Source: a virus (lineage: Duplodnaviria; Heunggongvirae; Uroviricota; Caudoviricetes). Taken from it: a stretch of 51,169 bases of DNA. Every line of letters begins with the position of its first letter. The stretch's first letter is position 1. The notes under the pieces are model-generated. The model was not told the DNA's origin and ran no database searches. It was given only the letters and a program-made list of their open reading frames with translations. Location: IMG/VR virus record IMGVR_UViG_2526164628_000012; one strand, 5' to 3'. Below are positions 9,915-51,169 of the stretch, in pieces. The position numbers and the translations under genes were made by a program.

Positions 9915-10892
9915 GTGTTCGGGGGTTTTATGAGCAGCAAGCTTCATGGTCTTGTCTGGGAAGGGTGCGCCTTCACCGGCATGATCTTATCCAGGGTGGC
10001 GGTTATGGCCCGTCTTGCAGACTACAGCAATGACGAGGGCGTGTCATGGCCTGCCATTGAAACTATCCGGCGTCAGATCGGTGCAAGAAGTGAATCCACA
10101 GTGAAATCGGCTATTGCAGAACTGGCGAAAGAGGGCTGGCTGACGAAGGAAGAGCGTAAGGTCGGTGGGCGTAATGTAAGCAATATCTATCGGCTTAATG
10201 TGGAAAAACTCGAAGCAGCTGCGGCGGCGGCGCGTGAGTCATATAAACCGAAAAGAAAAATTAGCCCGGCAAAAAATGACCCGTTAACAGTTGACCCGTC
10301 AAATATTGACCCCTCAACGGTTGACCCGTCAAATTTTGATGGATCAACTGTTGATAAAAAACTGCCGATTAGGGGGCCGATGATTGACCCCGATCCGTCA
10401 GTATTAAAACCTGATCCGTCAGATAAAAGATCTTCTTGTCCGGACGCTTCGCAACCGGACCCGCAGACGGCTGAACAGGATTTTTTAACCCGACACCCTG
10501 ACGCGGTTGTGTTCAGTGCGAAAAAACGCCAGTGGGGAAGTCAGGAAGATTTGGTGTGCGCACAGTGGATCTGGGGACGAATCGTGAGTCTTTACGAGCA
10601 GGCGGCCAGCTATGATGGCGAGATCACTAGACCGAAAGAACCCAACTGGACAGCATGGGCCAATGACGTTCGCACAATGCGGATGCTGGATGGCAGAACT
10701 CACAGACAAATTTGTGAAATGTTTGGGCGTCTCCAGCGGGATTCGTTCTGGGTAAAAAACATCATGAGTCCGGCAAAACTCCGGGAAAAATGGGATGAAC
10801 TGGTTATCCGCCTGGGGCGTTCGCCTGCGCAGCGTTGCGTGAATCACATTTCTGAACCGGACACTGAAATTCCGCCGGGCTTCAGGGGGTAA
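9915..10892 (+). CDS. Replication initiator (O-like) with embedded origin iterons
   Basis: Winged-helix-like N-terminus; internal 15-bp iterons encode VDPSN peptide repeats; probable true start ATG 9930. Confidence 0.6.
   Translation: MFGGFMSSKLHGLVWEGCAFTGMILSRVAVMARLADYSNDEGVSWPAIETIRRQIGARSESTVKSAIAELAKEGWLTKEERKVGGRNVSNIYRLNVEKLEAAAAAARESYKPKRKISPAKNDPLTVDPSNIDPSTVDPSNFDGSTVDKKLPIRGPMIDPDPSVLKPDPSDKRSSCPDASQPDPQTAEQDFLTRHPDAVVFSAKKRQWGSQEDLVCAQWIWGRIVSLYEQAASYDGEITRPKEPNWTAWANDVRTMRMLDGRTHRQICEMFGRLQRDSFWVKNIMSPAKLREKWDELVIRLGRSPAQRCVNHISEPDTEIPPGFRG
10277..10425 (+). repeat. Origin-like iterons: TGACCCNTNAAC repeated at 15-bp spacing plus additional GATCCGTCAG repeats
   Basis: Direct repeats at 10277, 10292, 10307, 10322 (and degenerate 10337), further repeats 10383-10421, inside the initiator gene as in lambda O/ori. 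Confidence 0.5.
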
Positions 10893-10932
10893 GTGTTAAT
10901 TTCTGGTCATGAGGTAATTTTCAGGAGGGCTT

Positions 10933-11355
10933 GTGGCAAAAGTTTTTACACAAGAAGAGCGGGAAAAAATTAAAGGGCAGGTTGTTGAACTCGTACGCCA
11001 GAGTGGGCGCGAGACGTTACGACAACTGGAAACTAAAACTGGGGCAACAAGATATCTGATGAGCGTTCTGGCCAGAGAGCTGGTTGCCAGTGGCGATGTA
11101 TACAACTCTGGTTACGGGTTATTCCCGTCTGAACAGGCGCGTAAGGACTGGCAAAATGCCCGTAAAAAGCTCTCAAGGGCAAAGCTGAAGAAACCATCTG
11201 CGGTTGATCCGGACCTTATCTGGTCATTACCTGACGGAGAAATACGTCGCTACGACAGGCGCCTAAACATAATCTGTCGCGAGTGCCGGAAGAGTGAAGC
11301 TATGCAGCGTGTACTGGCGTTTTATCAGGGGAATTTTGAGGAGGTGGTGCGGTGA
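10933..11355 (+). CDS. Hypothetical phage protein, 140 aa
   Basis: ORF following replication initiator; no Walker motifs seen. Confidence 0.45.
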   Translation: MAKVFTQEEREKIKGQVVELVRQSGRETLRQLETKTGATRYLMSVLARELVASGDVYNSGYGLFPSEQARKDWQNARKKLSRAKLKKPSAVDPDLIWSLPDGEIRRYDRRLNIICRECRKSEAMQRVLAFYQGNFEEVVR

Positions 11356-11606
11356 GTGAATCAAAATGCCAGGTTAATGGCAACAAGATAGAACCATGTG
11401 CAGCACTGGCAAAGTCCCTTGAGCGTGATGCTGAATACACGATGCGAAAAGGTCTGCTGATATACAAAATCTGGAATGAGAGTTTAACTCGCGGTCCTGA
11501 TTTTGTGATGTTGCGTTCCGGTGAATTTTCTAAATTACCAGTTCGGGTTTCATTTTGTCCGTTCTGTGGTGAAAGTCTGAAAACGTGGGAGAACAGAAAT
11601 GAATGA
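11352..11606 (+). CDS. Hypothetical protein, 84 aa, CxxC-containing
   Basis: Overlapping start/stop with neighbours; C-terminal CPFCGE motif. Confidence 0.45.
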   Translation: MSESKCQVNGNKIEPCAALAKSLERDAEYTMRKGLLIYKIWNESLTRGPDFVMLRSGEFSKLPVRVSFCPFCGESLKTWENRNE

Positions 11607-11910
11607 AATTAAAGAAATACCAGTAGTACGTGATGAATATGGCTACTGGACGCATCCTGAATATGAAAAATTCTGTGACGGTCGGGAATATATTTCAACG
11701 GAAGAGTTTAACGCCTGGATGGAGGAAAATAATCTTCAATACGTCCTCTGCTTCAGAGATGAAGGATGTGCTGACCTTGATGCGTGTGATGCTGATATTT
11801 CTGCATGGGAACCGGAACGACCAGAGGGCAATGGATGGTTTATTGGTTCAATACATGACACCGAAGATGGCCCGGTTTGTGTATGGCTGAGAAATAAGGC
11901 CGAAGCATAA
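11599..11910 (+). CDS. Hypothetical protein, 103 aa, Cys-rich
   Basis: ORF in nin-like small-gene array. Confidence 0.45.
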   Translation: MNEIKEIPVVRDEYGYWTHPEYEKFCDGREYISTEEFNAWMEENNLQYVLCFRDEGCADLDACDADISAWEPERPEGNGWFIGSIHDTEDGPVCVWLRNKAEA

Positions 11911-12038
11911 AGGCTATAAACCGACTAACAACTAAATACTGAAGATTTAAATCAGAAACGATTTTTATTAAATCCTTAACCGGAGGGATTCCTGCACCCT
12001 CAGAACATCAGGAGGCCGTCCGAAAGGGCGGTAGTGAA

Positions 12039-12221
12039 ATGCGAAAATTCAAAATAATTATTGAAACGGGAATAGCCGGTGGAGATTTCGAGGATGAATT
12101 CGAAGTGGATGATGATGCAACACCAGATGAAATACAGGATGAAGCTAAAGATATTTTCTTTAACTACTGCAATTACTCATACCACGAAATAAAAGACGAA
12201 GAGGAAGAACAAAATGGCTGA
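12039..12221 (+). CDS. Very acidic small protein, 60 aa (candidate DNA mimic)
   Basis: About one third Asp/Glu (DFEDEFEVDDDATPDEIQDEAKD...EEEEQ); RBS GGAGG upstream. Confidence 0.4.
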   Translation: MRKFKIIIETGIAGGDFEDEFEVDDDATPDEIQDEAKDIFFNYCNYSYHEIKDEEEEQNG

Positions 12222-12390
12222 TTTTGGTTCAACTAAATATAACGCCAGTTTTGAAGAATGGCATGAACTGTTAATGGATTATGCAGAGTTACGCGGTGGA
12301 AGTGCCGCTGATGCTGAAGCATGGCGTGATGATTATGAAGCAGGGAAAACACCGGTCGAAGCATATTGTGATGAGTGGGGCGATGAATGA
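12214..12390 (+). CDS. Acidic small protein, 58 aa
   Basis: Hand-found ORF MADFGSTKYNASFEEWHELLMDYAELRGGSAADAEAWRDDYEAGKTPVEAYCDEWGDE; overlaps neighbours at both ends; below track threshold. Confidence 0.3.
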   Translation: MADFGSTKYNASFEEWHELLMDYAELRGGSAADAEAWRDDYEAGKTPVEAYCDEWGDE

Positions 12391-12746
12391 GCGAGATTAA
12401 TTATCAGGAAGGGCATGAAAAGGCAGGGCAGGCAAAACCAGTGGCATGGCGATATCGCTACGTGAAAAAAGGCGTTACAGACTTTCAGGGGAAGCAGTGG
12501 GTTGGTGACTGGAAATATGTCCCGACAAAAGAGGATTGTAACGACAGACCAAACTATGAAATTCAGGCGTTATTCACGGCCCCGCCAGCTTCGGTGACAT
12601 CAGAAGGACTGGTTAAAGCTGTGCGCTTTTATGAACAGGTACGGCGTGAGGATCCGCCAGTTGAAACCGGAGCATGGAAAGACGCTATTGACTGGGTACT
12701 CAAGGAGGCCTGCCTGGTTGTAAACACGGGCATCAAAGGAGGCTGA
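12387..12746 (+). CDS. Hypothetical protein, 119 aa
   Basis: ORF in nin-like array, start overlaps previous stop. Confidence 0.45.
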   Translation: MSEINYQEGHEKAGQAKPVAWRYRYVKKGVTDFQGKQWVGDWKYVPTKEDCNDRPNYEIQALFTAPPASVTSEGLVKAVRFYEQVRREDPPVETGAWKDAIDWVLKEACLVVNTGIKGG

Positions 12747-12962
12747 ATGGGTATTGCCGCAAGTTATACCATGCATCTCTATTGTGATTGCCGCCAGTGT
12801 ACGGATGGCAAATATCAGTCGCCAGATTTTGGTGAGTATATCGGTACGTCATGGGCTGGCTGTGCAAAAGAGGCACGTAAAGATGGGTGGCGAATAAGTG
12901 CCGACAAAACGCGTGCTTTTGCGCCAGGGCATAAAATTTTGAGGAGCAACAAAGGAGAGTGA
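12747..12962 (+). CDS. Hypothetical Cys-rich protein, 71 aa
   Basis: ORF in array. Confidence 0.4.
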   Translation: MGIAASYTMHLYCDCRQCTDGKYQSPDFGEYIGTSWAGCAKEARKDGWRISADKTRAFAPGHKILRSNKGE

Positions 12963-12963
12963 T

Positions 12964-13182
12964 GTGCCTACATTATTCAGAAAAGAATATCCGCGAAAAA
13001 GTAGAGCGACAGAATTTTTGTTTCTCATTCTGTTTATCGTGTTGATGATACCGATATCCCCGTTAATTCTGGTATGGGGAATCGGAAAAATAATTGAGCC
13101 AGTTATTGAATTGTATAACGACGTGGTATGGGCTCCGTTCAACACACTGCACAATAAAATTAATCCGTATAAGGAAAACTGA
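12964..13182 (+). CDS. Small membrane protein, 72 aa
   Basis: Long hydrophobic segment FLFLILFIVLMIPISPLILVWGIG; AT-rich. Confidence 0.4.
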   Translation: MPTLFRKEYPRKSRATEFLFLILFIVLMIPISPLILVWGIGKIIEPVIELYNDVVWAPFNTLHNKINPYKEN

Positions 13183-13183
13183 T

Positions 13184-13447
13184 ATGGCAACTTTGACAAA
13201 AAAAGAACAGGCATGGTTGAACGAATTACAGGACGTTCTTGATCGCTGTCCATCACCGAAAAAAATTGGTTTTTACACCATTGGCGATAAAAGCATTTAC
13301 CTGTATGACCTGCGCCGCATGGATGAAATCATGGAGGCTCTTGATAATCGTTCGTCAATGGATTGGTGTGTTGCTGTCCATGATATGAATGCAGGGTTTG
13401 ATGAAAAGATTTTGTTCCCCTCATCAGTTGAAAGCACTGCGGGTTAA
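13184..13447 (+). CDS. Hypothetical protein, 87 aa
   Basis: ATG 13184 directly after previous stop; track ORF 13094-13447 trimmed to this start. Confidence 0.4.
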   Translation: MATLTKKEQAWLNELQDVLDRCPSPKKIGFYTIGDKSIYLYDLRRMDEIMEALDNRSSMDWCVAVHDMNAGFDEKILFPSSVESTAG

Positions 13448-13457
13448 GGAGTAACAC

Positions 13458-13625
13458 ATGACCACTATTACCAAAGAACGTATTGAATTGTTCATTAAAA
13501 ACCCGCTTGAAAACGGGCTTACCCGTGGTGAACAAATGGAACTGGCACGGATTGCGCTGGCATCGCTGGAAGCAGAGCCGGTTGTGTTCTGGTTTGAAAA
13601 ATATCAAGAAGGTGCTACGGCATGA
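13458..13625 (+). CDS. Hypothetical protein, 55 aa
   Basis: Hand-found [58 protein letters not shown]; N-terminus similar to next gene. Confidence 0.3.
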
Positions 13626-13966
13626 CGACTTTTACCAGAGAGCAGTTAATAGCTCACGCAGAGGAGACTATTGAAGCACAGAGACTGTGCATACCGGGCA
13701 CAATCGACCATGACATCATCCGCACATATAAGATGGATATTGCTGTTCTGGAAATCGCACTGGTATCGCTGGCAGCAGAGCCAGCCGGTAAATTGCATGA
13801 ATACAAACCAGTGGGATATCAGCGTCTGGTCGATGAGTTAACCATGCTGGTAAAGCAGTTAACCTGGCAACTGAGGAAAGCGAAGCCAGACTGCAAATTA
13901 CCGGATAAGGCGATGAGTTATCTGGAGCGGAACGGACTGATAAGCGTGGAGGATATTTTACGATGA
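13622..13966 (+). CDS. Hypothetical protein, 114 aa
   Basis: ORF, ATGA overlap with previous. Confidence 0.45.
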
Positions 13967-14046
13967 CCTGGCCTGAAGCATTAACAACGGTAGGAATTGC
14001 GATGGCGGTGGCGCTGGTGGTGTATTCGATTTGCCGCTGGGGATAA
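13963..14046 (+). CDS. Putative 27-aa membrane peptide
   Basis: Hand-found [34 protein letters not shown]-coupled to upstream gene. Confidence 0.2.
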
Positions 14047-14257
14047 AAACGGTTTGCGGGAAAAGGAGAGTTAAGTAGAATTGCAGCGGGTGCTTGAGGC
14101 TATCTGTCTCAGGCATGAACACCAAAAGGCAGATAGAGAAAAGCCCCAGTTAACATTACGCGTCCGGCAAGACGCTTAACATTAATCTGAGGCCATATCT
14201 ATGCTCTACACACGTAGGTTAGCCTCTTACGTGCCGAAAGGCAAGGAGAAGCAGGCT

Positions 14258-14413
14258 ATGAAGCAGCAAAAGGCGATGCTAATCGCCCTGATCGTCATCT
14301 GTTTAACCGTCATTGTGACGGCACTGGTAACGAGGAAAGACCTCTGCGAGGTACGAATCCGAACCGGCCAGACGGAGGTCGCTGTCTTCACAGCTTACGA
14401 ACCTGAGGAGTAA
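14258..14413 (+). CDS. hok: Hok/Gef-family type I toxin, 51 aa
   Basis: MKQQKAMLIALIVICLTVIVTALVTRKDLCEVRIRTGQTEVAVFTAYEPEE matches the Hok family (HokD/RelF-like); terminator follows. Confidence 0.8.
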   Translation: MKQQKAMLIALIVICLTVIVTALVTRKDLCEVRIRTGQTEVAVFTAYEPEE

Positions 14414-14483
14414 GAGACCTGGCGGGGGAGAAATCCCTCGCCACCTCTGATGTGTCAGGCATCCTCAACGCACCCGCACTTAA

Positions 14484-14508
14484 CCCGCTTCGGCGGGTTT
14501 TGTTTTTT
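14484..14508 (+). terminator. Rho-independent terminator after hok
   Basis: CCCGCTTCGGCGGG hairpin followed by TTTTGTTTTTT. Confidence 0.6.
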
Positions 14509-14580
14509 CCTGGCATTCTGGTTTACAATTCGCACGTCAGCCTGAACACCTGACACCTGCTGCGCCAGCAGAGAAAACAG

Positions 14581-14853
14581 ATGGCGCACAAAACCAAATT
14601 TCACAATTCTGATACCGACCTTGCCATCCGGCATGAGCGGCGTTCACACGCATTTAAAACCGACTGGTACCAACACCCACCATGTACTGAAGAACAGGCC
14701 GAATGGCTGATTCATAACTACCGCAGACGTGGATATGAGTTTAGGAAAGCCCTCACCCTCGATTATCGTCACTGGATAATCTACGTCAGACTCCCTTATT
14801 CCGAACGCCCACCGCGTCCGTCCCGCACATTCCAGCAACGGATCTGGAGGTAA
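14581..14853 (+). CDS. Hypothetical protein, 90 aa
   Basis: ORF upstream of DUF968 gene. Confidence 0.4.
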   Translation: MAHKTKFHNSDTDLAIRHERRSHAFKTDWYQHPPCTEEQAEWLIHNYRRRGYEFRKALTLDYRHWIIYVRLPYSERPPRPSRTFQQRIWR

Positions 14854-14854
14854 C

Positions 14855-15913
14855 GTGCGGGTATTACTTCGATCTGTTCCGGTACCGGAACTTGGGCTGG
14901 TGGTCCTTAAGCCTGGTCGTGAATCCATGCAGGTATTCCGCAGCGGTCGTGTACTGGTGGAGCCGGAACCGAAAAGCATGCGCGGTCTGCCGTCCGGAGT
15001 CGTTCCTGCCGTTCGCCAGCCATTGGCGGAGGATAAATCACTACTGCCATTTTTCAGCGATGAGCGGGTGATTCGTGCTGCTGGCGGTGCTGGTGCGCTG
15101 TCTGACTGGCTGTTACGCCACGTTAAATCCTGCCAGTGGCCTCATGGTGACTATCATCACAGTGAAATCGTCATACATCGTTACGGTACCGGCGCGATGG
15201 TGTTGTGCTGGCACTGCGACAACCAGCTGCGTGACCAGACCTCCGAATCACTCGGGCAACTTGCTCATCAAAACCTGTCAGCATGGATGATTGACGTCAT
15301 ACGCCATGCAGTGAATGGCACGCAGGAGCGGGAATTATCGCTGGCTGAATTGTGCTGCTGGGCTTCTGTAAATGATGTAGTGGATGCCATGACCGAAAAT
15401 ATGGCGCGTCGAATCCTGAAGCTTCCGGGTGAAAAAATCCGCTCAGTATACCGCGAGAGCGACATCGTACCGGGAGAGCAGACCGCCATCAGCATACTGA
15501 AGCAGCGCACAAAAAATATTGCGCCGTTGCCTCACGCCCACCAGCAACAGAATCCACCACAGGAAAAGACGGTGGTCAGCATTGCCGTTGATCCGGAGTC
15601 ACCGGCTCAGTATCTCCAGCGCCAGAAACCACAACGGGAAGAGATGCCTGTATACACGCGCTGGGTAAAAACGCAGAAATGCATGACGTGTGGCAATCAG
15701 GCAGATGATCCGCATCACATCATTGGTCATGGACTGGGAGGGATGGGAACAAAGGCTGATGATTTGTTTGTTATTCCGCTGTGCCGTAAATGCCATAGCG
15801 AACTACACGCCGGGGTAAAAGATTTTGAAGAAAAACACGGCAGCCAGCTGTTGTTGCTGATTCGTTTTTTAATGCACGCGAGAAATTCGGGTGTCCTGAA
15901 GTGGAAAGCATGA
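14855..15913 (+). CDS. DUF968 (YdfU-like) protein with C-terminal HNH-like zinc-finger motif, 352 aa
   Basis: C-terminal CMTCGN...HHIIGHG...CRKCHSELH pattern; position next to rusA as in Qin. Confidence 0.55.
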   Translation: MRVLLRSVPVPELGLVVLKPGRESMQVFRSGRVLVEPEPKSMRGLPSGVVPAVRQPLAEDKSLLPFFSDERVIRAAGGAGALSDWLLRHVKSCQWPHGDYHHSEIVIHRYGTGAMVLCWHCDNQLRDQTSESLGQLAHQNLSAWMIDVIRHAVNGTQERELSLAELCCWASVNDVVDAMTENMARRILKLPGEKIRSVYRESDIVPGEQTAISILKQRTKNIAPLPHAHQQQNPPQEKTVVSIAVDPESPAQYLQRQKPQREEMPVYTRWVKTQKCMTCGNQADDPHHIIGHGLGGMGTKADDLFVIPLCRKCHSELHAGVKDFEEKHGSQLLLLIRFLMHARNSGVLKWKA

Positions 15914-16279
15914 ATGACTGAACGCATAGAATTTGTTTTGCCTTACCCGCCAACGGTGAACACTTACTGGCGACGTCGTGGCAGCACATATTTTGTATCA
16001 AAAGCCGGTGAGCGTTATCGCCGTGATGTGGCGCTTATTGTTCGCCAGCAGCGGCTGAAATTAAACCTGTCCGGAAGGCTGGCGATAAAGATTATTGCAG
16101 AGCCACCGGATAAACGTCGTCGTGACCTGGACAATATCCTGAAAGCACCACTGGATGCGCTGACGCATGCCGGACTTCTCATAGACGACGAGCAGTTTGA
16201 TGAAATTAATATTGTGCGCGGTCAGCTCGTTCCTGGGGGGCGGCTGGGCGTGAAGATTTACAAAATTGAGAGTGAGTGA
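15914..16279 (+). CDS. rusA: Holliday-junction resolvase RusA, 121 aa
   Basis: Size and motifs (PPTVNTYWRRRG, RRRDLDN) match RusA; ATGA overlap with upstream gene. Confidence 0.8.
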   Translation: MTERIEFVLPYPPTVNTYWRRRGSTYFVSKAGERYRRDVALIVRQQRLKLNLSGRLAIKIIAEPPDKRRRDLDNILKAPLDALTHAGLLIDDEQFDEINIVRGQLVPGGRLGVKIYKIESE

Positions 16280-16287
16280 TCGTAAAT

Positions 16288-16830
16288 ATGATATATCCGG
16301 AAATTACAGGCAAAAGCGGCGAGCATTTACGTCTAAAAACGCTGGAAGCCGTCTGGATCCAGGGGAAATTACGGATGTGGGGGCGTTGGTCGTATATAGG
16401 TGGTGGCAAACCAGGAAATATGTTCAATCAGTTGCTGGCATCCAAAAAACTGACAAAAACCGCGGTCAATGAAGCCCTGCGTAGAATCAGGGAGTCAGGG
16501 ATTGATAAACCAGAGCTGGAAGCATTCTTGCGAGAGATGATCGCTGGCAGACAGAAGAGCTGGTTGTCTCACTGTACTGATGCAGAGGCGTTACGCATTG
16601 ATGGGGTGATAAGTAAAGCGCTTGCACGTTATCCTGGATTGATTGATATCCTGCGGCAAAGGTACGAAGGGCGGGGGATGAGTAAACGCAAAATGGCTGA
16701 ATTGTTGAATGAGGTTCACCCTGAGTGGTGCTATGCAACATGCCGCAATCGTATAGATATGTGGCTGAGAATAGCTGAGTTTATTCTGTATCCACTGATG
16801 CGAGATGCATTTTCTTTTACTGACGCTTAG
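16288..16830 (+). CDS. Putative late-gene antiterminator (Q-like), about 180 aa
   Basis: Position after rusA and before a strong terminator, tRNAs and lysis genes; MWGRWS motif resembles phage 21/933W-type Q; track start GTG 16276 possible. Confidence 0.45.
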   Translation: MIYPEITGKSGEHLRLKTLEAVWIQGKLRMWGRWSYIGGGKPGNMFNQLLASKKLTKTAVNEALRRIRESGIDKPELEAFLREMIAGRQKSWLSHCTDAEALRIDGVISKALARYPGLIDILRQRYEGRGMSKRKMAELLNEVHPEWCYATCRNRIDMWLRIAEFILYPLMRDAFSFTDA

Positions 16831-22457: not shown

Positions 22458-22628
22458 TCGCCTGTAAGAGCAGAATATTTTGCTGAAAAATGAAGGATGC
22501 GCCAGCGTCCGGTAAGCATGAAATTCTGTGTTTGTGGCTACTCAATAAAATAAATTCTTTCTGTCGCCGCGAATACTCAAATGTTGATCAGTGCCCGGTG
22601 CGGCGACGGGCTTCGATATCAGGAGACG

Positions 22629-23024
22629 ATGATGGAAAAAACAGAAAACAAACCGATTGTAATTGGTGCTGATGCTGCTCCGTTTAAGTTTGAGTTGTCT
22701 CAACTGGTGGAGATGCGTATCAGTGATGAATGGGGTGAGGTTAAAGCCCGCGCGCAGTATGCGGATGGCGAAAACCAGTACTTGATCCACTACAAAGCAG
22801 CTGATGGTCGCGCCACGACGGAGTGGTTTGGTGAGTCAATGCTGGAAGCAACAGAAGATGATCGTCATCCGGGTTGTCCGGTATTTGCCGGTATGAAATT
22901 ACCGGAAGGTGCAGTTGAACTGCAGCCGGGTGAGGTGTTCGTAATGACAGACATCATTGATGGTAAACCGCAGTATTCGCGTATTGAAATGAATAGTAAG
23001 AGTGCTCGCCTGATTCGTGAGTAA
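22629..23024 (+). CDS. Hypothetical protein, 131 aa
   Basis: ATG at 22629 after GGAGA; hairpin terminator follows at about 23030-23070. Confidence 0.45.
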   Translation: MMEKTENKPIVIGADAAPFKFELSQLVEMRISDEWGEVKARAQYADGENQYLIHYKAADGRATTEWFGESMLEATEDDRHPGCPVFAGMKLPEGAVELQPGEVFVMTDIIDGKPQYSRIEMNSKSARLIRE

Positions 23025-23394
23025 CAGGCATTACAGCAGCCCTTCACTCTAAGGGGTTGCTGTAATGTGAGAAATAAAAAACCGGTCACAGGGAGCAGCT
23101 ACACAGAAGCGGCCGGCGAAGACCGCCAATACCACCCATGCATTGATGCAACATACTAATGACAATAGCCGCTATTGATGTAAATGCAATGTTATGCATC
23201 GACGAAAATAAAAAACCGGCAGGGGAAATCCATTGAAGATTTGCCGGTGGCAAAAGAGGGCCATGTTTTTAACCTTAGTCGCAGAGTTACGGAGTGCAAC
23301 TACGAATGCTGCCGGTATATGGCTGAATGGCGTTTCAATGATGTACGTCATCTTATCTGTAAATGTTAATGACAAACGCTCTCATTTGTGCGGG

Positions 23395-23600
23395 TCCTTC
23401 CGGTGGGGTGGCCTGCCACGGGGCGGAAGGCGCGCGGGTTTTCGCTATTTATGAAAATTTTCCGGGGAAAATCATGTCGGTACTTCTCGAACATAACTAT
23501 TTGTTTTTTCTAATATCGAATCCGTAAAAGGTCCGACATGAAAACGCCTAAAAAAGTCATTTTCGGGCACTTTCATGTCGGACCCTGTGTTTGTTGTGAG
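23395..23600 (+). promoter_or_regulatory. cos site (cosN with flanking terminase-binding inverted repeats)
   Basis: ACGGGGCGGAAGGCGCGCGGGTTTTCGCTATTTATGAAAATTTTCCGG resembles lambda cos except for the cohesive-end 12-mer; inverted repeats GTCCGACATGAAA / TTTCATGTCGGAC just upstream of Nu1. Confidence 0.55.
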
Positions 23601-23608
23601 ACTGTTTC

Positions 23609-24128
23609 ATGAAGGTTAATAAAAAGAAACTTGCCGAAATTTTCAACGTGGATCCGCGAACGATTGAACGCTGGCAGTCTCAGGGACTCCCTTGCGTCTC
23701 CGGAGGTGGTAAGGGCGTTGAATCTGTATTTGATACCTCCATGGCAATTCAGTGGTATGCGCAGAGGGAGGCTGATATCGAAAATGAAAAACTCCGTAAA
23801 GAGGTTGAGGATTACAGAGCTGCCAGTGAGGCAGATCTCCAGCCTGGGACTATTGAGTACGAACGCCATCGACTTACGCGTGCGCAGGCCGACGCACAGG
23901 AGCTGAAGAATGCCAGAGACTCCGCAGAAGTGGTGGAAACCGCATTCTGTACTTTCGTGCTGTCACGGATCGCAGGTGAAATTGCCAGTATTCTTGACGG
24001 GATCCCTCTCTCGGTACAGCGGCGTTTTCCGGAACTGGAAAACCGACATGTTGATTTCCTGAAACGGGATATCATCAAAGCCATGAACAAAGCAGCCGCG
24101 CTGGATGAACTGATACCGGGGTTGCTGA

Positions 24129-24154
<26 letters not shown>
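23609..24154 (+). CDS. Nu1: Terminase small subunit Nu1
   Basis: Near-identical to recalled lambda gpNu1. Confidence 0.9.
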
Positions 24155-27835
<3,681 letters not shown>

Positions 27836-45831: not shown

Positions 45832-48800
45832 GTGAATATGGCAGTAAAGATTTCAGGTGTACTGAAAGACGGCACAGGAAAACCGGTACAGAACTGCACA
45901 ATCCAGCTGAAAGCAAAACGTAACAGCACCACGGTGGTGGTGAACACGCTGGCCTCAGAAAATCCGGATGAAGCCGGGCGTTACAGTATGGACGTTGAGT
46001 ACGGTCAGTACAGCGTTATTCTGTTGGTGGAAGGATTCCCGCCGTCACATGCCGGGACCATCACCGTGTATGAAGATTCCCGACCCGGTACGCTGAATGA
46101 TTTTCTCGGTGCCATGACGGAGGATGATGCCCGTCCGGAGGCACTGCGCCGTTTTGAGCTGATGGTGGAAGAGGTGGCGCGTAACGCGTCCGCGGTGGCA
46201 CAGAACACGGCAGCCGCGAAGAAGTCAGCCGGCGATGCCGGCACATCAGCCCGTGAGGCGGCAACCCATGCGACTGATGCTGCAGGCTCAGCACGCGCAG
46301 CCAGCACATCAGCCGGGCAGGCCGCGACGTCGGCTCAGTCAGCGTCTTCCAGCGCAGGAACGGCATCAACAAAGGCTACTGAAGCATCAAAAAGTGCTGC
46401 CGCTGCAGAGTCCTCAAAAAGCGCGGCAGCTACCAGTGCCGGTGCGGCGAAAACGTCAGAAACGAATGCGGCAGCGTCACAAAAATCTGCAGCCACTTCT
46501 GCATCCGCAGCGACCACAAAGGCGTCAGAAGCTGCCACCTCAGCCCGGGATGCGGCGGCCTCAAAAGAGGCAGCGAAATCATCAGAAACGAACGCATCAT
46601 CAAGCGCCAGTAGTGCCGCTTCCTCGGCAACGGCGGCAGGAAATTCCGCGAAGGCGGCAAAGACGTCCGAGACGAACGCCAGGTCTTCTGAAACGGCAGC
46701 GGGACAGAGTGCCTCAGCTGCGGCAGGCTCAAAAACAGCGGCAGCATCATCTGCCAGTGCCGCGTCAACAAGTGCCGGGCAGGCCTCAGCCAGTGCCACC
46801 GCTGCCGGAAAGTCGGCAGAAAGTGCCGCCTCGTCTGCTTCAACAGCCACAACGAAGGCTGGCGAAGCCACTGAACAGGCCAGTGCAGCAGCGAGGTCTG
46901 CTTCCGCAGCGAAGACATCCGAGACGAACGCGAAAGCGTCGGAAACCAGCGCAGAATCCTCAAAAACGGCTGCCGCATCGTCCGCCAGTTCGGCGGCGTC
47001 ATCGGCATCATCGGCGTCAGCTTCAAAAGATGAGGCGACCAGACAGGCGTCAGCAGCGAAGGGCAGCGCCACGACAGCATCCACGAAGGCGACAGAGGCA
47101 GCTGGCAGTGCGACGGCGGCAGCACAGAGCAAAAGTACGGCGGAATCCGCGGCAACGCGCGCCGAGACAGCAGCTAAACGGGCAGAGGATATTGCATCCG
47201 CCGTGGCGCTTGAGGATGCAAGTACGACGAAAAAGGGGATAGTACAGCTCAGCAGTGCGACCAACAGTACGTCTGAAACGCTGGCGGCAACGCCAAAGGC
47301 AGTAAAATCAGCCTATGACAATGCAGAGAAACGTCTGCAGAAAGACCAGAACGGCGCTGATATACCCGATAAGGGACGCTTCCTGAACAACATTAACGCG
47401 GTCAGTAAAACAGACTTTGCTGATAAGCGTGGTATGCGTTATGTGCGGGTTAACGCTCCTGCAGGTGCAACATCTGGAAAATATTACCCTGTTGTTGTTA
47501 TGCGTTCTGCTGGCTCAGTAAGCGAACTGGCATCAAGGGTCATTATCACCACGGCACCGCGAACCGCAGGCGATCCGATGAATAACTGCGAGTTTAACGG
47601 ATTTGTTATGCCTGGTGGCTGGACTGACAGGGGGCGTTATGCTTATGGAATGTTCTGGCAATATCAAAACAATGAACGAGCCATCCACTCAATAATGATG
47701 AGTAATAAGGGCGATGATTTGCGCTCTGTGTTCTATGTTGATGGCGCTGCTTTCCCTGTTTTTGCGTTTATCGAAGATGGCCTGTCAATATCCGCACCTG
47801 GTGCTGATCTCGTTGTTAATGATACGACCTATAAGTTTGGGGCAACAAATCCAGCGACTGAATGTATCGCGGCGGACGTTATCCTTGATTTTAAGAGTGG
47901 GCGTGGTTTTTATGAGTCTCATTCGTTAATCGTTAACGATAACTTGTCGTGCAAAAAACTTTTTGCCACAGACGAAATTGTAGCGCGTGGTGGTAATCAG
48001 ATTCGAATGATAGGTGGGGAGTATGGTGCATTATGGCGTAATGATGGCGCTAAAACTTACCTGCTGCTTACCAATCAAGGTGATGTTTATGGTGGCTGGA
48101 ATACATTAAGACCGTTTGCTATTGATAACGCAACCGGCGAACTGGTTATTGGAACCAAACTGTCCGCAAGTCTGAACGGTAATGCATTAACAGCAACAAA
48201 GCTGCAAACGCCAAGACGGGTTTCTGGTGTTGAGTTTGATGGTTCCAAAGATATTACTTTAACCGCCGCGCATGTGGCTGCTTTTGCCAGAAGGGCAACG
48301 GATACATATGCCGATGCGGATGGTGGCGTTCCCTGGAATGCCGAATCAGGCGCTTACAATGTCACCCGCTCTGGCAACAGCTATATTCTGGTTAACTTCT
48401 ATACCGGAGTCGGAAGTTGCCGGACATTGCAGATGAAGGCGCATTACAGAAATGGAGGTCTGTTCTACCGTTCCTCAAGAGATGGCTATGGTTTTGAGGA
48501 AGACTGGGCAGAAGTTTATACCTCGAAAAATCTTCCACCAGAAAGCTACCCAGTCGGTGCACCAATCCCGTGGCCATCAGATACCGTTCCGTCTGGTTAT
48601 GCCCTGATGCAGGGGCAGACTTTTGACAAATCTGCTTACCCGAAACTTGCAGCCGCTTATCCGTCAGGCGTGATCCCTGATATGCGTGGCTGGACGATTA
48701 AGGGCAAACCTGCCAGTGGTCGGGCCGTATTGTCTCAGGAACAGGACGGCATTAAATCGCACACCCACAGCGCCAGCGCATCCAGTACGGATTTGGGGAC

Positions 48801-49251
48801 GAAAACCACATCGTCGTTTGATTACGGCACTAAATCCACGAATAACACCGGGGCGCATACGCACAGTCTGAGTGGCTCTACGGGGTCTGCCGGTGTTCAT
48901 ACTCATGGTAATGGTATTCGTTGGCCAGGAGGCGGCGGTTCTGCGTTAGCATTTTATGATGGCGGTGGGTTCACTTATGTCCAGAATTCACAGTATCAAG
49001 TAAGCCCGGAGACTTCTTCCTATAGATCGTATTATCAACGTATTCAGACACAGTCAGCAGGTGCTCATACCCACTCGCTGTCTGGTACTGCAGCAAGTTC
49101 TGGCGCACATGCACATACTGTAGGTATTGGTGCGCATACGCACTCCGTTGCGATTGGTTCACATGGACACACCATCACCGTTAACGCTGCGGGTAACGCG
49201 GAAAACACCGTCAAAAACATCGCATTTAACTATATTGTGAGGCTTGCATAA
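45832..49251 (+). CDS. stf: Side tail fibre protein (Stf-like), 1139 aa
   Basis: N-terminal lambda Stf-like region, long Ala/Ser/Thr-rich repeat tract, C-terminal region with repeated GAHTHS motifs. Confidence 0.85.
46180..47220 (+). repeat. GC-rich degenerate tandem repeats encoding Ala/Ser/Thr-rich tract of Stf
   Basis: Recurrent peptide units such as [12 protein letters not shown], SSASAAS; generates long spurious ORFs in all other frames. Confidence 0.7.
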
Positions 49252-49835
49252 TGGCATTCAGAATGAGTGAACAAGCACGGACCATAAAAATTTATAATCT
49301 GCTGGCCGGAACTAATGAATTTATTGGTGAAGGTGACGCATATATTCCGCCTCATACAGGTCTGCCAGCAAACAGTACCGATATTGCACCACCAGATATT
49401 CCTGCTGGCTTTGTGGCTGTTTTCAACAGTGATGAGGCATCGTGGCATCTCGTTGAAGACCATCGGGGTAAAACGGTTTATGACGTAGCGTCAGGGGACG
49501 AGTTATTTATTTCTGAACTCGGTCCGTTACCGGAAAATGTTACCTGGTTATCGCCGGAAGGGGAGTTTCAGAAGTGGAACGGCACAGCCTGGGTGAAGGA
49601 TACGGAAGCAGAAAAACTGTTCCGGATCCGGGAGGCGGAAGAAACAAAAAACAACCTGATGCAGGTAGCCAGTGAGCATATTGCGCCGCTTCAGGATGCT
49701 GCAGATCTGGAAATTGCAACGGAGGAAGAAACCTCATTGCTGGAAGCCTGGAAAAAGTATCGGGTGTTGCTGAACCGTGTTGATACATCAACTGCACCTG
49801 ATATTGAGTGGCCTACGAACCCTGTCAGGGAGTAA
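49251..49835 (+). CDS. tfa: Tail fibre assembly protein (Tfa), 194 aa
   Basis: Immediately follows stf with ATGA-type overlap; lambda Tfa-like. Confidence 0.85.
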
Positions 49836-49884
49836 TCATTGGGATTATGCCGCAGCACGTCTTAAGCAAGAACGTGCTGCGGTT
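49670..49884 (+). repeat. Direct repeat copy 1 (tfa 3' end plus hairpin), about 215 bp
   Basis: About 88% identical to 50720-50934; includes hairpin GCCGCAGCACGT...ACGTGCTGCGGT. Confidence 0.75.
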
Positions 49885-49889
49885 GGATG

Positions 49890-50558
49890 CTATTTTTTCC
49901 CTGAAGCGGAAAACATTACTACAGTACCTTGAACCTTGGTTTTAACATTCTCGAAATGCTCTGAGAGTATATGTGTTAAGCCTTCTTCGGAATCTTTTGT
50001 GTTTGAAAAGATGCCTTTCTGATTGTAAATGCGCATCAGTTTTTGACCGAAGCTATTGTGCACAACTCCATCGCCAAGAATTGTGGCTCCGTATAGAGTT
50101 CCATCGTCAGTTAAGGCCTGCGCCGCATTGCGTATTACACAGCTTTTTGTAGATATATTTCCAGGCAGGCAGTGAAGAAGGTAAAACATGGAAATGGAAT
50201 CAAATTGACCATGTAACGCCGCGGGATAAGGTTCAAAAACATCATGGCTAATTTTATGTTTAATTTTTGATTCCCCAGCCCTTGTAGATGCCGCGTTCAG
50301 GCTAGCTTCGTTCAAATCCATTAAAGATATCAGACTACTCTCAGGTACGTGAGTAAGGTAAAACCCAGTTCCAACACCAATATCCAGATGGTTGTTACCT
50401 ACATGTTCCAGAAAGTGTGGAAGAAGGTGTTCCTTTGTAGGACATCCCCATGCAAGCCGATTTGATACTCCCAAAACCCACCAGTCATAAAGCTTTAGGG
50501 TAAGTGGTGTGTAAATTTTAGCCCCATCATCTGTGTTTTTTTTCATTGATTTCACCAT
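49890..50558 (-). CDS. Class I SAM-dependent methyltransferase, 222 aa (moron)
   Basis: Motif I HLDIGVGTGFY; opposite strand to late operon; about 40% GC; bracketed by the 215-bp tfa direct repeats. Confidence 0.6.
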   Translation of the reverse strand: MVKSMKKNTDDGAKIYTPLTLKLYDWWVLGVSNRLAWGCPTKEHLLPHFLEHVGNNHLDIGVGTGFYLTHVPESSLISLMDLNEASLNAASTRAGESKIKHKISHDVFEPYPAALHGQFDSISMFYLLHCLPGNISTKSCVIRNAAQALTDDGTLYGATILGDGVVHNSFGQKLMRIYNQKGIFSNTKDSEEGLTHILSEHFENVKTKVQGTVVMFSASGKK

Positions 50559-50614
50559 GTTATAGTTTTATTTGTGAATTAAATCAATTATGGCGATGAA
50601 TTACAAGGGGTTAA

Positions 50615-50884
50615 ATGCTGCCGCAGCATAGCGATATTGAAATAGCCTGGTATGCTTCGATACAGCAGGAGCCGAATGGCTGGAAGACCGTCACCACACA
50701 GTTCTACATCCAGGAATTCAGTGAGTATATTGCGCCACTGCAGGATGCTGTAGATCTGGAAATCGCAACGGAGGAAGAAAGATCGTTGCTGGAGGCATGG
50801 AATAAATATCGGGTATTGTTGAATCGTGTTGATACATCAACTGCACCTGATATTGAGTGGCCTGCAAATCCTGTCAGGGAGTAA
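50615..50884 (+). pseudogene. Tfa C-terminal remnant fused to unrelated N-terminus
   Basis: Only the last 45 codons resemble Tfa; upstream 44 codons unrelated. Confidence 0.45.
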
Positions 50885-50934
50885 TCATTGGGATTATGCC
50901 GCAGACACGTCGTATGCAGGAACGTGCTGCGGTT
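50720..50934 (+). repeat. Direct repeat copy 2 (tfa 3' end remnant plus hairpin)
   Basis: Matches 49670-49884; encodes C-terminal 45 aa of a Tfa-like protein. Confidence 0.75.
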
Positions 50935-51169
50935 AGTTTGTGAGCTTTCGATAGTGGTTGTTATTTTTGCCCTTATTTGTTCCGGAGGCCATGGTTCAAT
51001 GGTCCGTCTGCCCCCTGTGGTGATGTCAGCAAAATCAGCCACTGCGCGAACCACAATAGCCCGGGAAGATGCTGAAGATCACCAGGTAAAGCTATCAGCG
51101 CAGAAACTGGAAGAACTGCTCGCATCAATGGTTAAGGATGAGGTTGATCGCAATGATGGGATTTATTGA
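50888..51169 (+). CDS. Partial ORF running off the window end (unknown product)
   Basis: No stop before window end; likely true start at internal Met (about 51023, MSAKSATARTT...). Confidence 0.3.
   Translation: MGLCRRHVVCRNVLRLVCELSIVVVIFALICSGGHGSMVRLPPVVMSAKSATARTTIAREDAEDHQVKLSAQKLEELLASMVKDEVDRNDGIY

Follow-up and report, generated by a model that had tools for sequence, protein, structure and literature searches.

How a minus-strand methyltransferase gene came to be flanked on both sides by the end of a tail-fibre assembly gene was the question raised by this locus, which stands at the right end of IMG/VR virus record IMGVR_UViG_2526164628_000012 (Caudoviricetes; 51,169 nucleotides, here called the window and numbered from its first letter). 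The gene belongs to the ybcY family and encodes a class I S-adenosylmethionine (SAM)-dependent methyltransferase. Each flanking direct repeat consists of the 3' end of tfa, the tail-fibre assembly chaperone gene, and a hairpin (Table 1). The best explanation overall was that a lambdoid prophage, integrated at ompW, carries ybcY as a moron cassette at its right end, and we gave this reading a probability of roughly 0.7. The cassette is already known. It is annotated in Escherichia coli K-12 as tfaD-ybcY-tfaX and is an ordinary lambdoid moron in a known cargo position, so that the novelty implied by the original prediction, which was made from the sequence alone, was overstated.

The K-12 counterpart is located in prophage DLP12 (b0561-b0563). 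The order tfaD-ybcY-tfaX was the same, and window 49397-50861 was 97% identical to K-12 581.7-583.1 kb. The matching stretch covers the two tfa copies as well as the hairpin and the promoter spacer. However, ybcY is a pseudogene in K-12, with the start codon lost and a 2-nt deletion at an A-tract, whereas it is intact here. In addition, DLP12 is a cryptic remnant with appY and ompT after tfaX, whereas the window holds a near-complete prophage at ompW. The region matched E. coli TW10590 in full (100% identity) and UTI89, S88, APEC O1 and ATCC 11775 at 99.9%. In these genomes a lambdoid prophage lies in ompW, beside yciE and trp, and the region makes up its right arm. The gene order of this prophage is J, lom, stf, tfa, the methyltransferase gene (WP_000240999.1), a tfa pseudogene, a DUF4376 pseudogene and a duplicated ompW 3' fragment. 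The same prophage fills the rest of the window, where an integrase gene adjoins the intact ompW and two insertion sequence (IS) elements are present. The prophage is probably defective, although its set of structural genes is complete.

The same prophage was also found without ybcY. With a synthetic deletion-product query, in which tfa was joined to the right hairpin and its downstream sequence, four such genomes were identified (EFF60, 190693, NMBU-W13E19 and JP538). At the same site in ompW, tfa ran straight into the right hairpin and the DUF4376 remnant in all four. The ybcY gene is inserted between sequences that are adjacent in these relatives, and its base composition is deviant, with a GC content of 41.1% where tfa has 48% and the window 52.8%. 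It is oriented against the late operon. Together with a promoter region of its own, these features bore out the earlier proposal that the gene was cargo of the moron type. Lambdoid morons, as set out by Juhala and Hendrix in 2000, are reportedly independent transcription units of deviant composition, with their own promoter and a flanking hairpin, that are inserted between genes lying side by side in relatives and are not needed for lytic growth. The present cassette differs from that definition, in which long direct repeats of a structural-gene end have no place, and the ybcY hairpin is not a canonical terminator. Dispensability was seen in phage Ayreon, which has deleted 49926-50584, and in K-12, where the gene has no start codon.

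The limits of the imported unit were given by comparison with non-phage copies. DNA homology to the Salmonella copies was confined to window 49884-50615, and homology to the Enterobacter copy stopped at 50608. Since DNA homology to non-phage copies ended at 50608-50615, the unit comprised the gene and about 57 bp of promoter. On the other side, 5 nt separated the ybcY stop codon from the left repeat. Candidate promoter hexamers were predicted at TTGATT (50587-50582) and TATAAC (50564-50559) with a 17-nt spacing, and a second candidate was predicted at TTAACC (50614-50609) and CATAAT (50592-50587) with a 16-nt spacing. An RpoD constitutive promoter, TTGATT-17-TATAAC, was reported in the K-12 ybcY/tfaX spacer by in vitro SELEX (systematic evolution of ligands by exponential enrichment), with HNS noted (PMC3946193).

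The direct repeats were examined next to their surroundings. The original prediction of 215-bp repeats with about 88% identity was confirmed (49670-49884 against 50720-50934; 193/216 positions, 89.4%, one 1-nt indel), and each repeat consisted, as proposed, of the tfa 3' end (177 nt coding for Caudo_TAP) and the same hairpin. Over their full extent, the repeats aligned in two blocks separated by the 1-nt indel, 49659-49855 against 50708-50904 with 89% identity and 49856-49884 against 50906-50934 with 90%. Identity was 40-49% just outside the repeats, which gave sharp edges, and weak homology extended over 49654-49889 and 50703-50941. In the coding parts, 12.5 synonymous differences were counted against 9.5 non-synonymous ones (ratio of non-synonymous to synonymous rates, dN/dS, of 0.18; binomial p of about 0.001 or lower). 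The right copy had no stop codon or frameshift over 59 codons. Because of this synonymous excess and the open right copy, most of the divergence was considered to have accrued while both copies were functional tfa genes. We inferred that recombination had brought together the 3' ends of two tfa alleles, and that the repeats were not a recent in situ duplication.

A probable record of recombination between the repeats was found in the four ybcY-less genomes. Their tfa genes had a left-type 5' end and a right-type 3' end. The switch points lay in alignment columns 167-203 in one genome and 122-162 in the other three, and short right-type patches occurred further upstream in three of the four. 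Independent homologous recombination between the repeats, that is, repeat-mediated loss, best explained this hybrid pattern, as the sequences suggest. The part of the original prediction that implicated recombination at tfa was thus supported by the repeat divergence and by the differing crossover points.

We also surveyed 80 viral contigs whose tfa alleles were at least 95% identical to that of the window. About 50 of the 80 loci carried at least part of the cassette; most others ended at or just after tfa, and about 15 continued past tfa without it. In some prophages the right copy ended at 132 bp, in others it gave way at 155 bp to a different natural allele of the tfa 3' end, and in others it was complete and had its hairpin. 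The cassette core (49715-50839) was present in phages 2G7b and PhiR49_1 at 98.9% identity, although their upstream tail-fibre genes differed, indicating that both tfa fragments travel with ybcY. In the case of phage Ayreon, position 49925 was joined to 50585, and the last 12 ybcY codons (36 nt) were kept. The spacer was also kept (50585-50701, 90.6% identical) without the right tfa copy, and it ran into unrelated sequence. Ayreon was considered as an ancestral empty site and rejected, because the retained 36 nt encode the C-terminus GTVVMFSASGKK, which chromosomal homologues also conserve; the junction is therefore a deletion scar. Of the 89-amino-acid (aa) open reading frame (ORF) across the spacer, the N-terminal 30 residues occurred in phage records only with the ybcY cassette or in Ayreon, and no full-length parent protein was found there. 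An invertible tail-fibre segment of the Gin/Cin/Pin type (Mu, P1, e14) was also rejected, as the repeats are direct and no invertase is annotated between stf and attR.

Based on the above results, we propose the following history. A stand-alone gene of about 730 bp with its own sigma-70 promoter (49885-50615) would have been captured from an enterobacterial chromosomal or plasmid methyltransferase family. It would have been placed, reading against the late operon, 5 nt past the conserved hairpin at which the transcription unit of tfa ends. The 3' ends (about 230 bp) of two once-functional tfa alleles may have been joined by phage-phage recombination or by single-crossover integration of a circular fragment. 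The repeat homology would let the cassette enter any phage with a lambda-type tfa, and would also permit its loss by repeat-mediated deletion, leaving a hybrid tfa. In the lysogen, ybcY would most likely be expressed from its own H-NS-bound promoter, with a conversion or accessory function. The enzyme would be catalytically competent and dispensable for phage growth. Several points weigh against this reading. Among phage records there was no full-length tfa with a complete right-type 3' end, and the best match outside the cassette reached 91%. The hybrid tfa genes might stem from mosaicism of tfa in general, or might be ancestral, instead of marking cassette deletion. The ybcY promoter hexamers are predictions here, and the binding evidence concerns K-12 DNA in SELEX, not expression of this prophage. 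In addition, the order of events is unprovable from extant sequences.

The hairpin was proposed in the original prediction to act as a bidirectional terminator. Such a role was not established. The left hairpin was stable (folding energy of −24 to −29 kcal/mol; z of −4.4 on the plus strand and −3.8 on the minus strand), and z ranged from −2.2 to −4.4 over both hairpins. However, no U-tract directly followed the stem on either strand, and a terminator consensus scan did not call the left copy. A run of six T residues lay 10 nt downstream of the left hairpin and corresponded to the Lys-Lys codons at the end of the YbcY protein. The element also occurred without convergent genes. A literature search on lambda late-operon terminators returned nothing. 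Across 12 hairpin variants, 95.8% of pair cells were paired, and two pairs showed compensatory changes. The pattern of the element was CCGCAG-N20-22-CTGCGG with a GTGAACTTTCGATAGTG tail.

Copies of the hairpin were found in phage lambda at 22573-22606, after tfa, and at 24162-24195, between ea47 and ea31. The second copy was identical to the right hairpin (50899-50932) at 34 of 34 positions, and homology continued for about 25 bp further downstream. The tail after the right hairpin, of roughly 20 bp, was homologous to lambda 24196-24219 and to the ybcY-less loci L015, L038, L058 and L089. The lambda b-region resembles the present locus in its tfa (92.6% identical), in the same hairpin and in having two hairpins that bracket a minus-strand accessory gene. 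It differs in that the cargo is ea47 instead of a methyltransferase and that only the hairpin element of about 60 bp is doubled, not the tfa 3' end. Other cargo was found in prophages with near-identical tfa. Locus L089 (5600-9800) carried a LEM-3-like GIY-YIG gene, an EcoRII endonuclease and a Dcm-like C5 methylase between two hairpin copies; L090 (5097-6175) carried a GIY-YIG gene alone in the slot, and L038 (5600-9250) a SitABCD-like ZnuA/ABC-3 metal transporter. Judged by its sequence, the hairpin is a conserved boundary element that marks a cargo slot. It may end transcription, protect 3' ends or simply supply homology.

We then considered the methyltransferase. The original prediction of a minus-strand class I enzyme with the motif HLDIGVGTGFY and about 40% GC held, as the ORF scored above gathering for four Pfam families (Methyltransf_12, 37.5 against 30; _23, 29 against 27; _25, 27.7 against 27; _11, 24.6 against 21.2). 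The match to PHROG 2132 (E = 4.2e-157) placed residues 5-222 on profile positions 1-218 of 218. The predicted 222-aa ORF was real. However, its true start is probably the ATG at 50546, which would give a protein of 218 aa, because the family alignment and the PHROG 2132 profile both begin at residue 5. A weak Shine-Dalgarno sequence, GGTGA, lay 5 nt ahead of this ATG. In an alignment of 21 homologues, the most distant of which had 56% identity, HLDIGVGTG(F/Y)Y (motif I, with F or Y at residue 66), D81, H105-D106 and D120-S121 were invariant, and the family-specific motifs YDWWVL, YLLHCLPG and YNxKGIFSN were conserved. The glycine loop of motif I, the acidic residues and the seven-stranded beta-sheet fold of class I SAM methyltransferases were all present. 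The AlphaFold 2 (AF2) model had a predicted local distance difference test score (pLDDT) of 88.4.

The gene appeared to be maintained. Values of dN/dS against the Salmonella and Enterobacter alleles were 0.11-0.17, and 35 of the 37 full-length copies in related viral contigs were intact. The repeats aligned and the gene was conserved, so that neither of the observations named as refuting the original prediction was made. The ATG at 50546 runs into an A8 tract (window 50535-50546). In the K-12 copy and in one of the two disrupted viral-contig copies open to inspection, this ATG was lost and 1-2 nt were deleted at the A8 tract. The lesion points to a null allele, either inherited or arising repeatedly, at a site prone to slippage.

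The type of enzyme was assessed from fold and profile matches. Foldseek matched the model to PmtA (8ys9), juvenile hormone acid methyltransferase (JHAMT), SgvM and NodS. A profile comparison with PDB sequences gave JHAMT (E = 5e-6) and then UbiG, and the best sequence and fold matches overall were JHAMT, UbiG, BelI, DhpI, RebM and PmtA. However, identity to the characterised small-molecule methyltransferases JHAMT (7ebs/7ec0), UbiG (4kdr), BelI (9fce), DhpI (3ou2) and PmtA (8ys9) was only 12-21%, and the three family motifs could not be matched to these structures. Since no match stood out, the substrate was not transferable from any of them. The NCBIfam equivalogs were rejected, being far below threshold (PmtA, 15.7 bits against 390; RquA, 16.9 against 175; CpaM, 18 against 180). 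No Pfam match to N6_Mtase, N6_N4_Mtase or DNA_methylase was obtained at E values up to 0.01, whereas the Dcm-like gene of locus L089 scored 263 bits for DNA_methylase. The motifs DPPY/NPPY and PCQ/ENV were absent from the 21-homologue alignment. PADLOC gave no defence-system match, the sole hit being 12.9 bits. These results agreed with the earlier view so far as it took the enzyme to resemble a small-molecule rather than a DNA methyltransferase. Going by sequence and model, the protein is an intact class I SAM methyltransferase under purifying selection, of small-molecule or lipid type by its closest fold. A diffusible metabolite or xenobiotic would be our guess for the substrate, because the gene is a self-contained single-gene unit on the phages, plasmids and chromosomes of distant bacteria.

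The distribution of the cassette was wide. Of 5426 complete E. coli genomes, 3798 (about 70%) carried the gene and its promoter (49885-50615) at ≥95% identity, with up to four copies per genome, and the whole arrangement including the downstream remnant was found in 1113 genomes. In addition, ybcY occurred in the temperate phages 2G7b, ev243, Turner and Kati and in the PhiR series, and one phage record names the identical protein 'YbcY'. The module was 99-100% identical across hosts. The protein was 100% identical to protein cluster P0002, which has 6589 members. Both PHROG 2132 (ybcY) and PHROG 2341 (the 89-aa ORF) are listed with function unknown. In 2G7b-type phages and DLP12, the cassette is followed by ompT (omptin), with an alpha/beta hydrolase gene or appY between them. 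The E. coli ompT gene thus lies within the same prophage cargo region as ybcY. In uropathogenic E. coli, ybcY was reported 272 bp from ompT (PMC6854850). Deletion of ybcY left Hha toxicity unchanged (PMC2408971), and no phenotype for ybcY was reported in the papers that name the gene. A literature search returned nothing on prophage tail fiber assembly with a SAM-dependent methyltransferase, nor on WP_000240999, and tfaX and tfaD appeared only as unrelated acronyms.

Outside phages, Salmonella copies in plasmid or IS contexts were 87.6% identical in DNA, and an Enterobacter chromosomal copy was 69% identical. Homologues with 56-65% aa identity were stand-alone genes in non-prophage chromosomal settings (Salmonella, Enterobacter and Erwinia). 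The nearest non-E. coli alleles (Salmonella, 79-87% aa) adjoined perC-like genes and transposases, or sat on a ccdAB/KfrA plasmid-type contig. The ybcY family therefore also moves outside phages. By tblastn, it was present on 761 plasmids, 603 of them from Klebsiella. On the virulence plasmid of hypervirulent K. pneumoniae (NZ_CP144338.1), a homologue lay beside rmpA and divergent from it, near rmpD, rmpC, peg-344 and iroN. This homologue (WP_011251259.1) belongs to the same family, with 64% identity over its full length, and is likewise a stand-alone gene on a mobile element. It differs in being plasmid-borne, divergent from rmpADC and without flanking tfa repeats. The rmpA-adjacent methyltransferase has been listed as a marker associated with liver abscess, its function not being tested there (PMC5126061, PMC9372168). 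In PMC5126061 the protein beside RmpA (BAH65944.1) is BAH65943.1, which we equated with WP_011251259.1 by position only, the sequence not being checked. Homologues with about 40% identity, also stand-alone, were found on Rhodococcus plasmids and on the Prescottella equi plasmid pVAPN, so that the family spans Enterobacterales to Rhodococcus plasmids. Neighbourhood was dropped as a clue to function, because the homologues of Salmonella, Enterobacter, Erwinia, pVAPN and Rhodococcus all stood alone among unrelated neighbours.

Other explanations of the locus were weighed against these results. The 3' end of tfa may have been duplicated in tandem within one phage, with ybcY inserted later and the right copy decaying since. 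The right copy is indeed without the N-terminal two thirds of tfa and annotated as a pseudogene, and its 3' side varies between prophages (132, 155 and 177 bp). However, neutral decay would give a dN/dS of about 1 instead of 0.18, and no stop or frameshift has arisen in its 59 codons. The two copies are 11% apart, while the ybcY module is nearly invariant across hosts, and at the 155-bp 'truncation' the sequence passes into a different natural allele of the tfa 3' end, which ends EEPDTV and has a hairpin of its own. We considered this origin unlikely. The cassette might also be a selfish or neutral hitch-hiker that persists only through its place in a recombination hot spot, with an enzyme that serves neither phage nor host. 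Its deletion in Ayreon, null state in K-12 and absence from sister prophages fit this, as does the lack of a phenotype in papers naming ybcY. In contrast, the low dN/dS and the 35 of 37 intact copies, the presence in 70% of complete E. coli genomes with as many as four copies each, and the conservation of the family as far as Rhodococcus plasmids speak against it, and we regarded this explanation as improbable.

The remaining alternatives concern the function of YbcY within the moron cassette. An anti-defence or epigenetic enzyme would methylate DNA or RNA and protect the phage or modify the host. Methyltransferases are frequent in phages, an EcoRII-type restriction-modification system occupies the same slot in a related prophage, and a few tRNA enzymes (CmoA, METTL6) were among the fold matches. 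However, the DNA-methylase families and the DPPY or PCQ/ENV motifs were missing, PADLOC gave a 12.9-bit non-hit, and the prophage has a separate DNA methyltransferase near tRNA genes. The homologues are stand-alone chromosomal genes in non-phage contexts. Moreover, ybcY reads against the late operon and has an HNS-marked spacer in K-12 (PMC3946193), which fits expression in the lysogen, not during infection. This function seemed about as improbable as the hitch-hiker. YbcY could instead be a PmtA-like phospholipid N-methyltransferase, or another envelope modifier, that alters the lysogen surface. The gene adjoins receptor-binding genes, and the top Foldseek match was the Rubellimicrobium PmtA 8ys9 (E = 2.8e-11; template modelling (TM) score 0.61-0.65), which is of similar length. 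A weak NCBIfam match to a Legionella-type PmtA and the Trp-rich, amphipathic N-terminal helix with its invariant YDWWVL point the same way. We gave this specific function only a slim chance.

A joint reading combines the function with the repeats. The YbcY family would be a mobile, self-contained methyltransferase acting on an envelope lipid or on a small molecule of relevance to the host, as a fitness or virulence-related trait of the lysogen or plasmid carrier, and the tfa-end and hairpin repeats would be its homology handle. We held this combination to be doubtful, although conceivable. If the mobile trait were true, it would explain why the family recurs at the prophage ends of extraintestinal pathogenic E. 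coli, in the ompT-proximal DLP12, on rmpA-side Klebsiella plasmids and on actinobacterial plasmids. If the homology handle were true, a pop-out circle of the cassette would re-enter a lambda-type phage by a single crossover, giving recombinase-free mobility at the tail-fibre end. The moron reading itself has consequences of its own. The ybcY gene is among the most widespread E. coli prophage cargo genes and often present in several copies, and identifying its substrate would annotate thousands of genomes. As a natural example of how cargo comes and goes at the tail-fibre end of lambdoid phages, the locus is a clean one. The slot, which takes ybcY, lambda ea47, an EcoRII system or a Sit-type transporter, is marked by a short conserved hairpin element, and duplicated gene ends supply homology for exchange. 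Nothing here is unexpected under lambdoid phage mosaicism.

The coordinates of the features are collected in Table 1. The tfa DNA was 92.6% identical to lambda tfa/orf-194. PGAP lists the right tfa copy among the pseudogenes ('tail fiber assembly protein, missing N-terminus'), as it does the DUF4376 remnant in TW10590 and UTI89, which is followed by the duplicated ompW 3' fragment (attR) in the source genome.

Table 1. Features at the right end of the window, with positions in window coordinates.
Feature	Position	Strand	Remarks
stf, side tail fibre gene	45832-49251		precedes tfa
tfa, tail-fibre assembly chaperone, 194 aa	49251-49835	+	final late-operon gene; Pfam Caudo_TAP E = 1.9e-44; PGAP WP_000885577.1
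Rfam IS009 (RF02111) match inside tfa coding sequence	49594-49792	+	225 bits against a gathering score of 117
Left direct repeat, terminal 177 nt of tfa and hairpin	49659-49884	+	88.5% identity to right repeat
Left hairpin, 12-bp stem	49849-49883		begins 13 nt past tfa stop, ends 6 nt short of ybcY stop codon
ybcY-family class I SAM-dependent methyltransferase, ORF of 222 aa	49890-50558	-	Pfam; PHROG 2132; product WP_000240999.1
ybcY promoter region, co-captured with gene	50559-50615	-	limit of DNA homology to non-phage homologues; hexamers
89-aa ORF	50615-50884	+	last 59 codons Caudo_TAP E = 6e-25; PHROG 2341 full length E = 4e-61
Spacer of unknown origin, travels with ybcY	50616-50702		encodes N-terminal 30 codons of 89-aa ORF
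Second IS009 match, right copy	50638-50841		112.5 bits, slightly below threshold
Right direct repeat, 5'-truncated tfaX-like tfa and hairpin	50708-50934	+	coding part 50708-50884
Right hairpin	50898-50933		12-bp stem; folding energy −19 to −24 kcal/mol
Conserved post-hairpin tail (GTGAnCTTTCGATAGTG)	50934-50960		part of a boundary element of about 75 bp
DUF4376/tail-fibre-type gene remnant	50981-51169	+	cut by window end; PHROG 1141 (tail fiber protein) E = 7e-10

The IS009 'sRNA' family appeared to model the end of the tail-fibre chaperone gene and its tfaX-like duplicate. An independent small RNA at the IS009 match was doubtful, the match being within the tfa coding sequence. An Rfam CssrB match at the hairpin reached 32.6 bits, short of the gathering score of 76, and was put down to chance or to a shared hairpin. 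Further to the left, a separate DNA methyltransferase gene (WP_000611212.1), three tRNA genes (Arg, Arg and Ile) and a TerB-family gene lay upstream of the lysis cassette (window about 22900-25600). Because of this separate gene, the DNA-modification function of the prophage was taken to be encoded there and not by ybcY. In the case of the IS insertions (window about 10650-16300), the IS21-like ISEc62 splits a helix-turn-helix gene, two partial pseudogene fragments of which flank it, and the IS66-like ISCro1 lies nearby.

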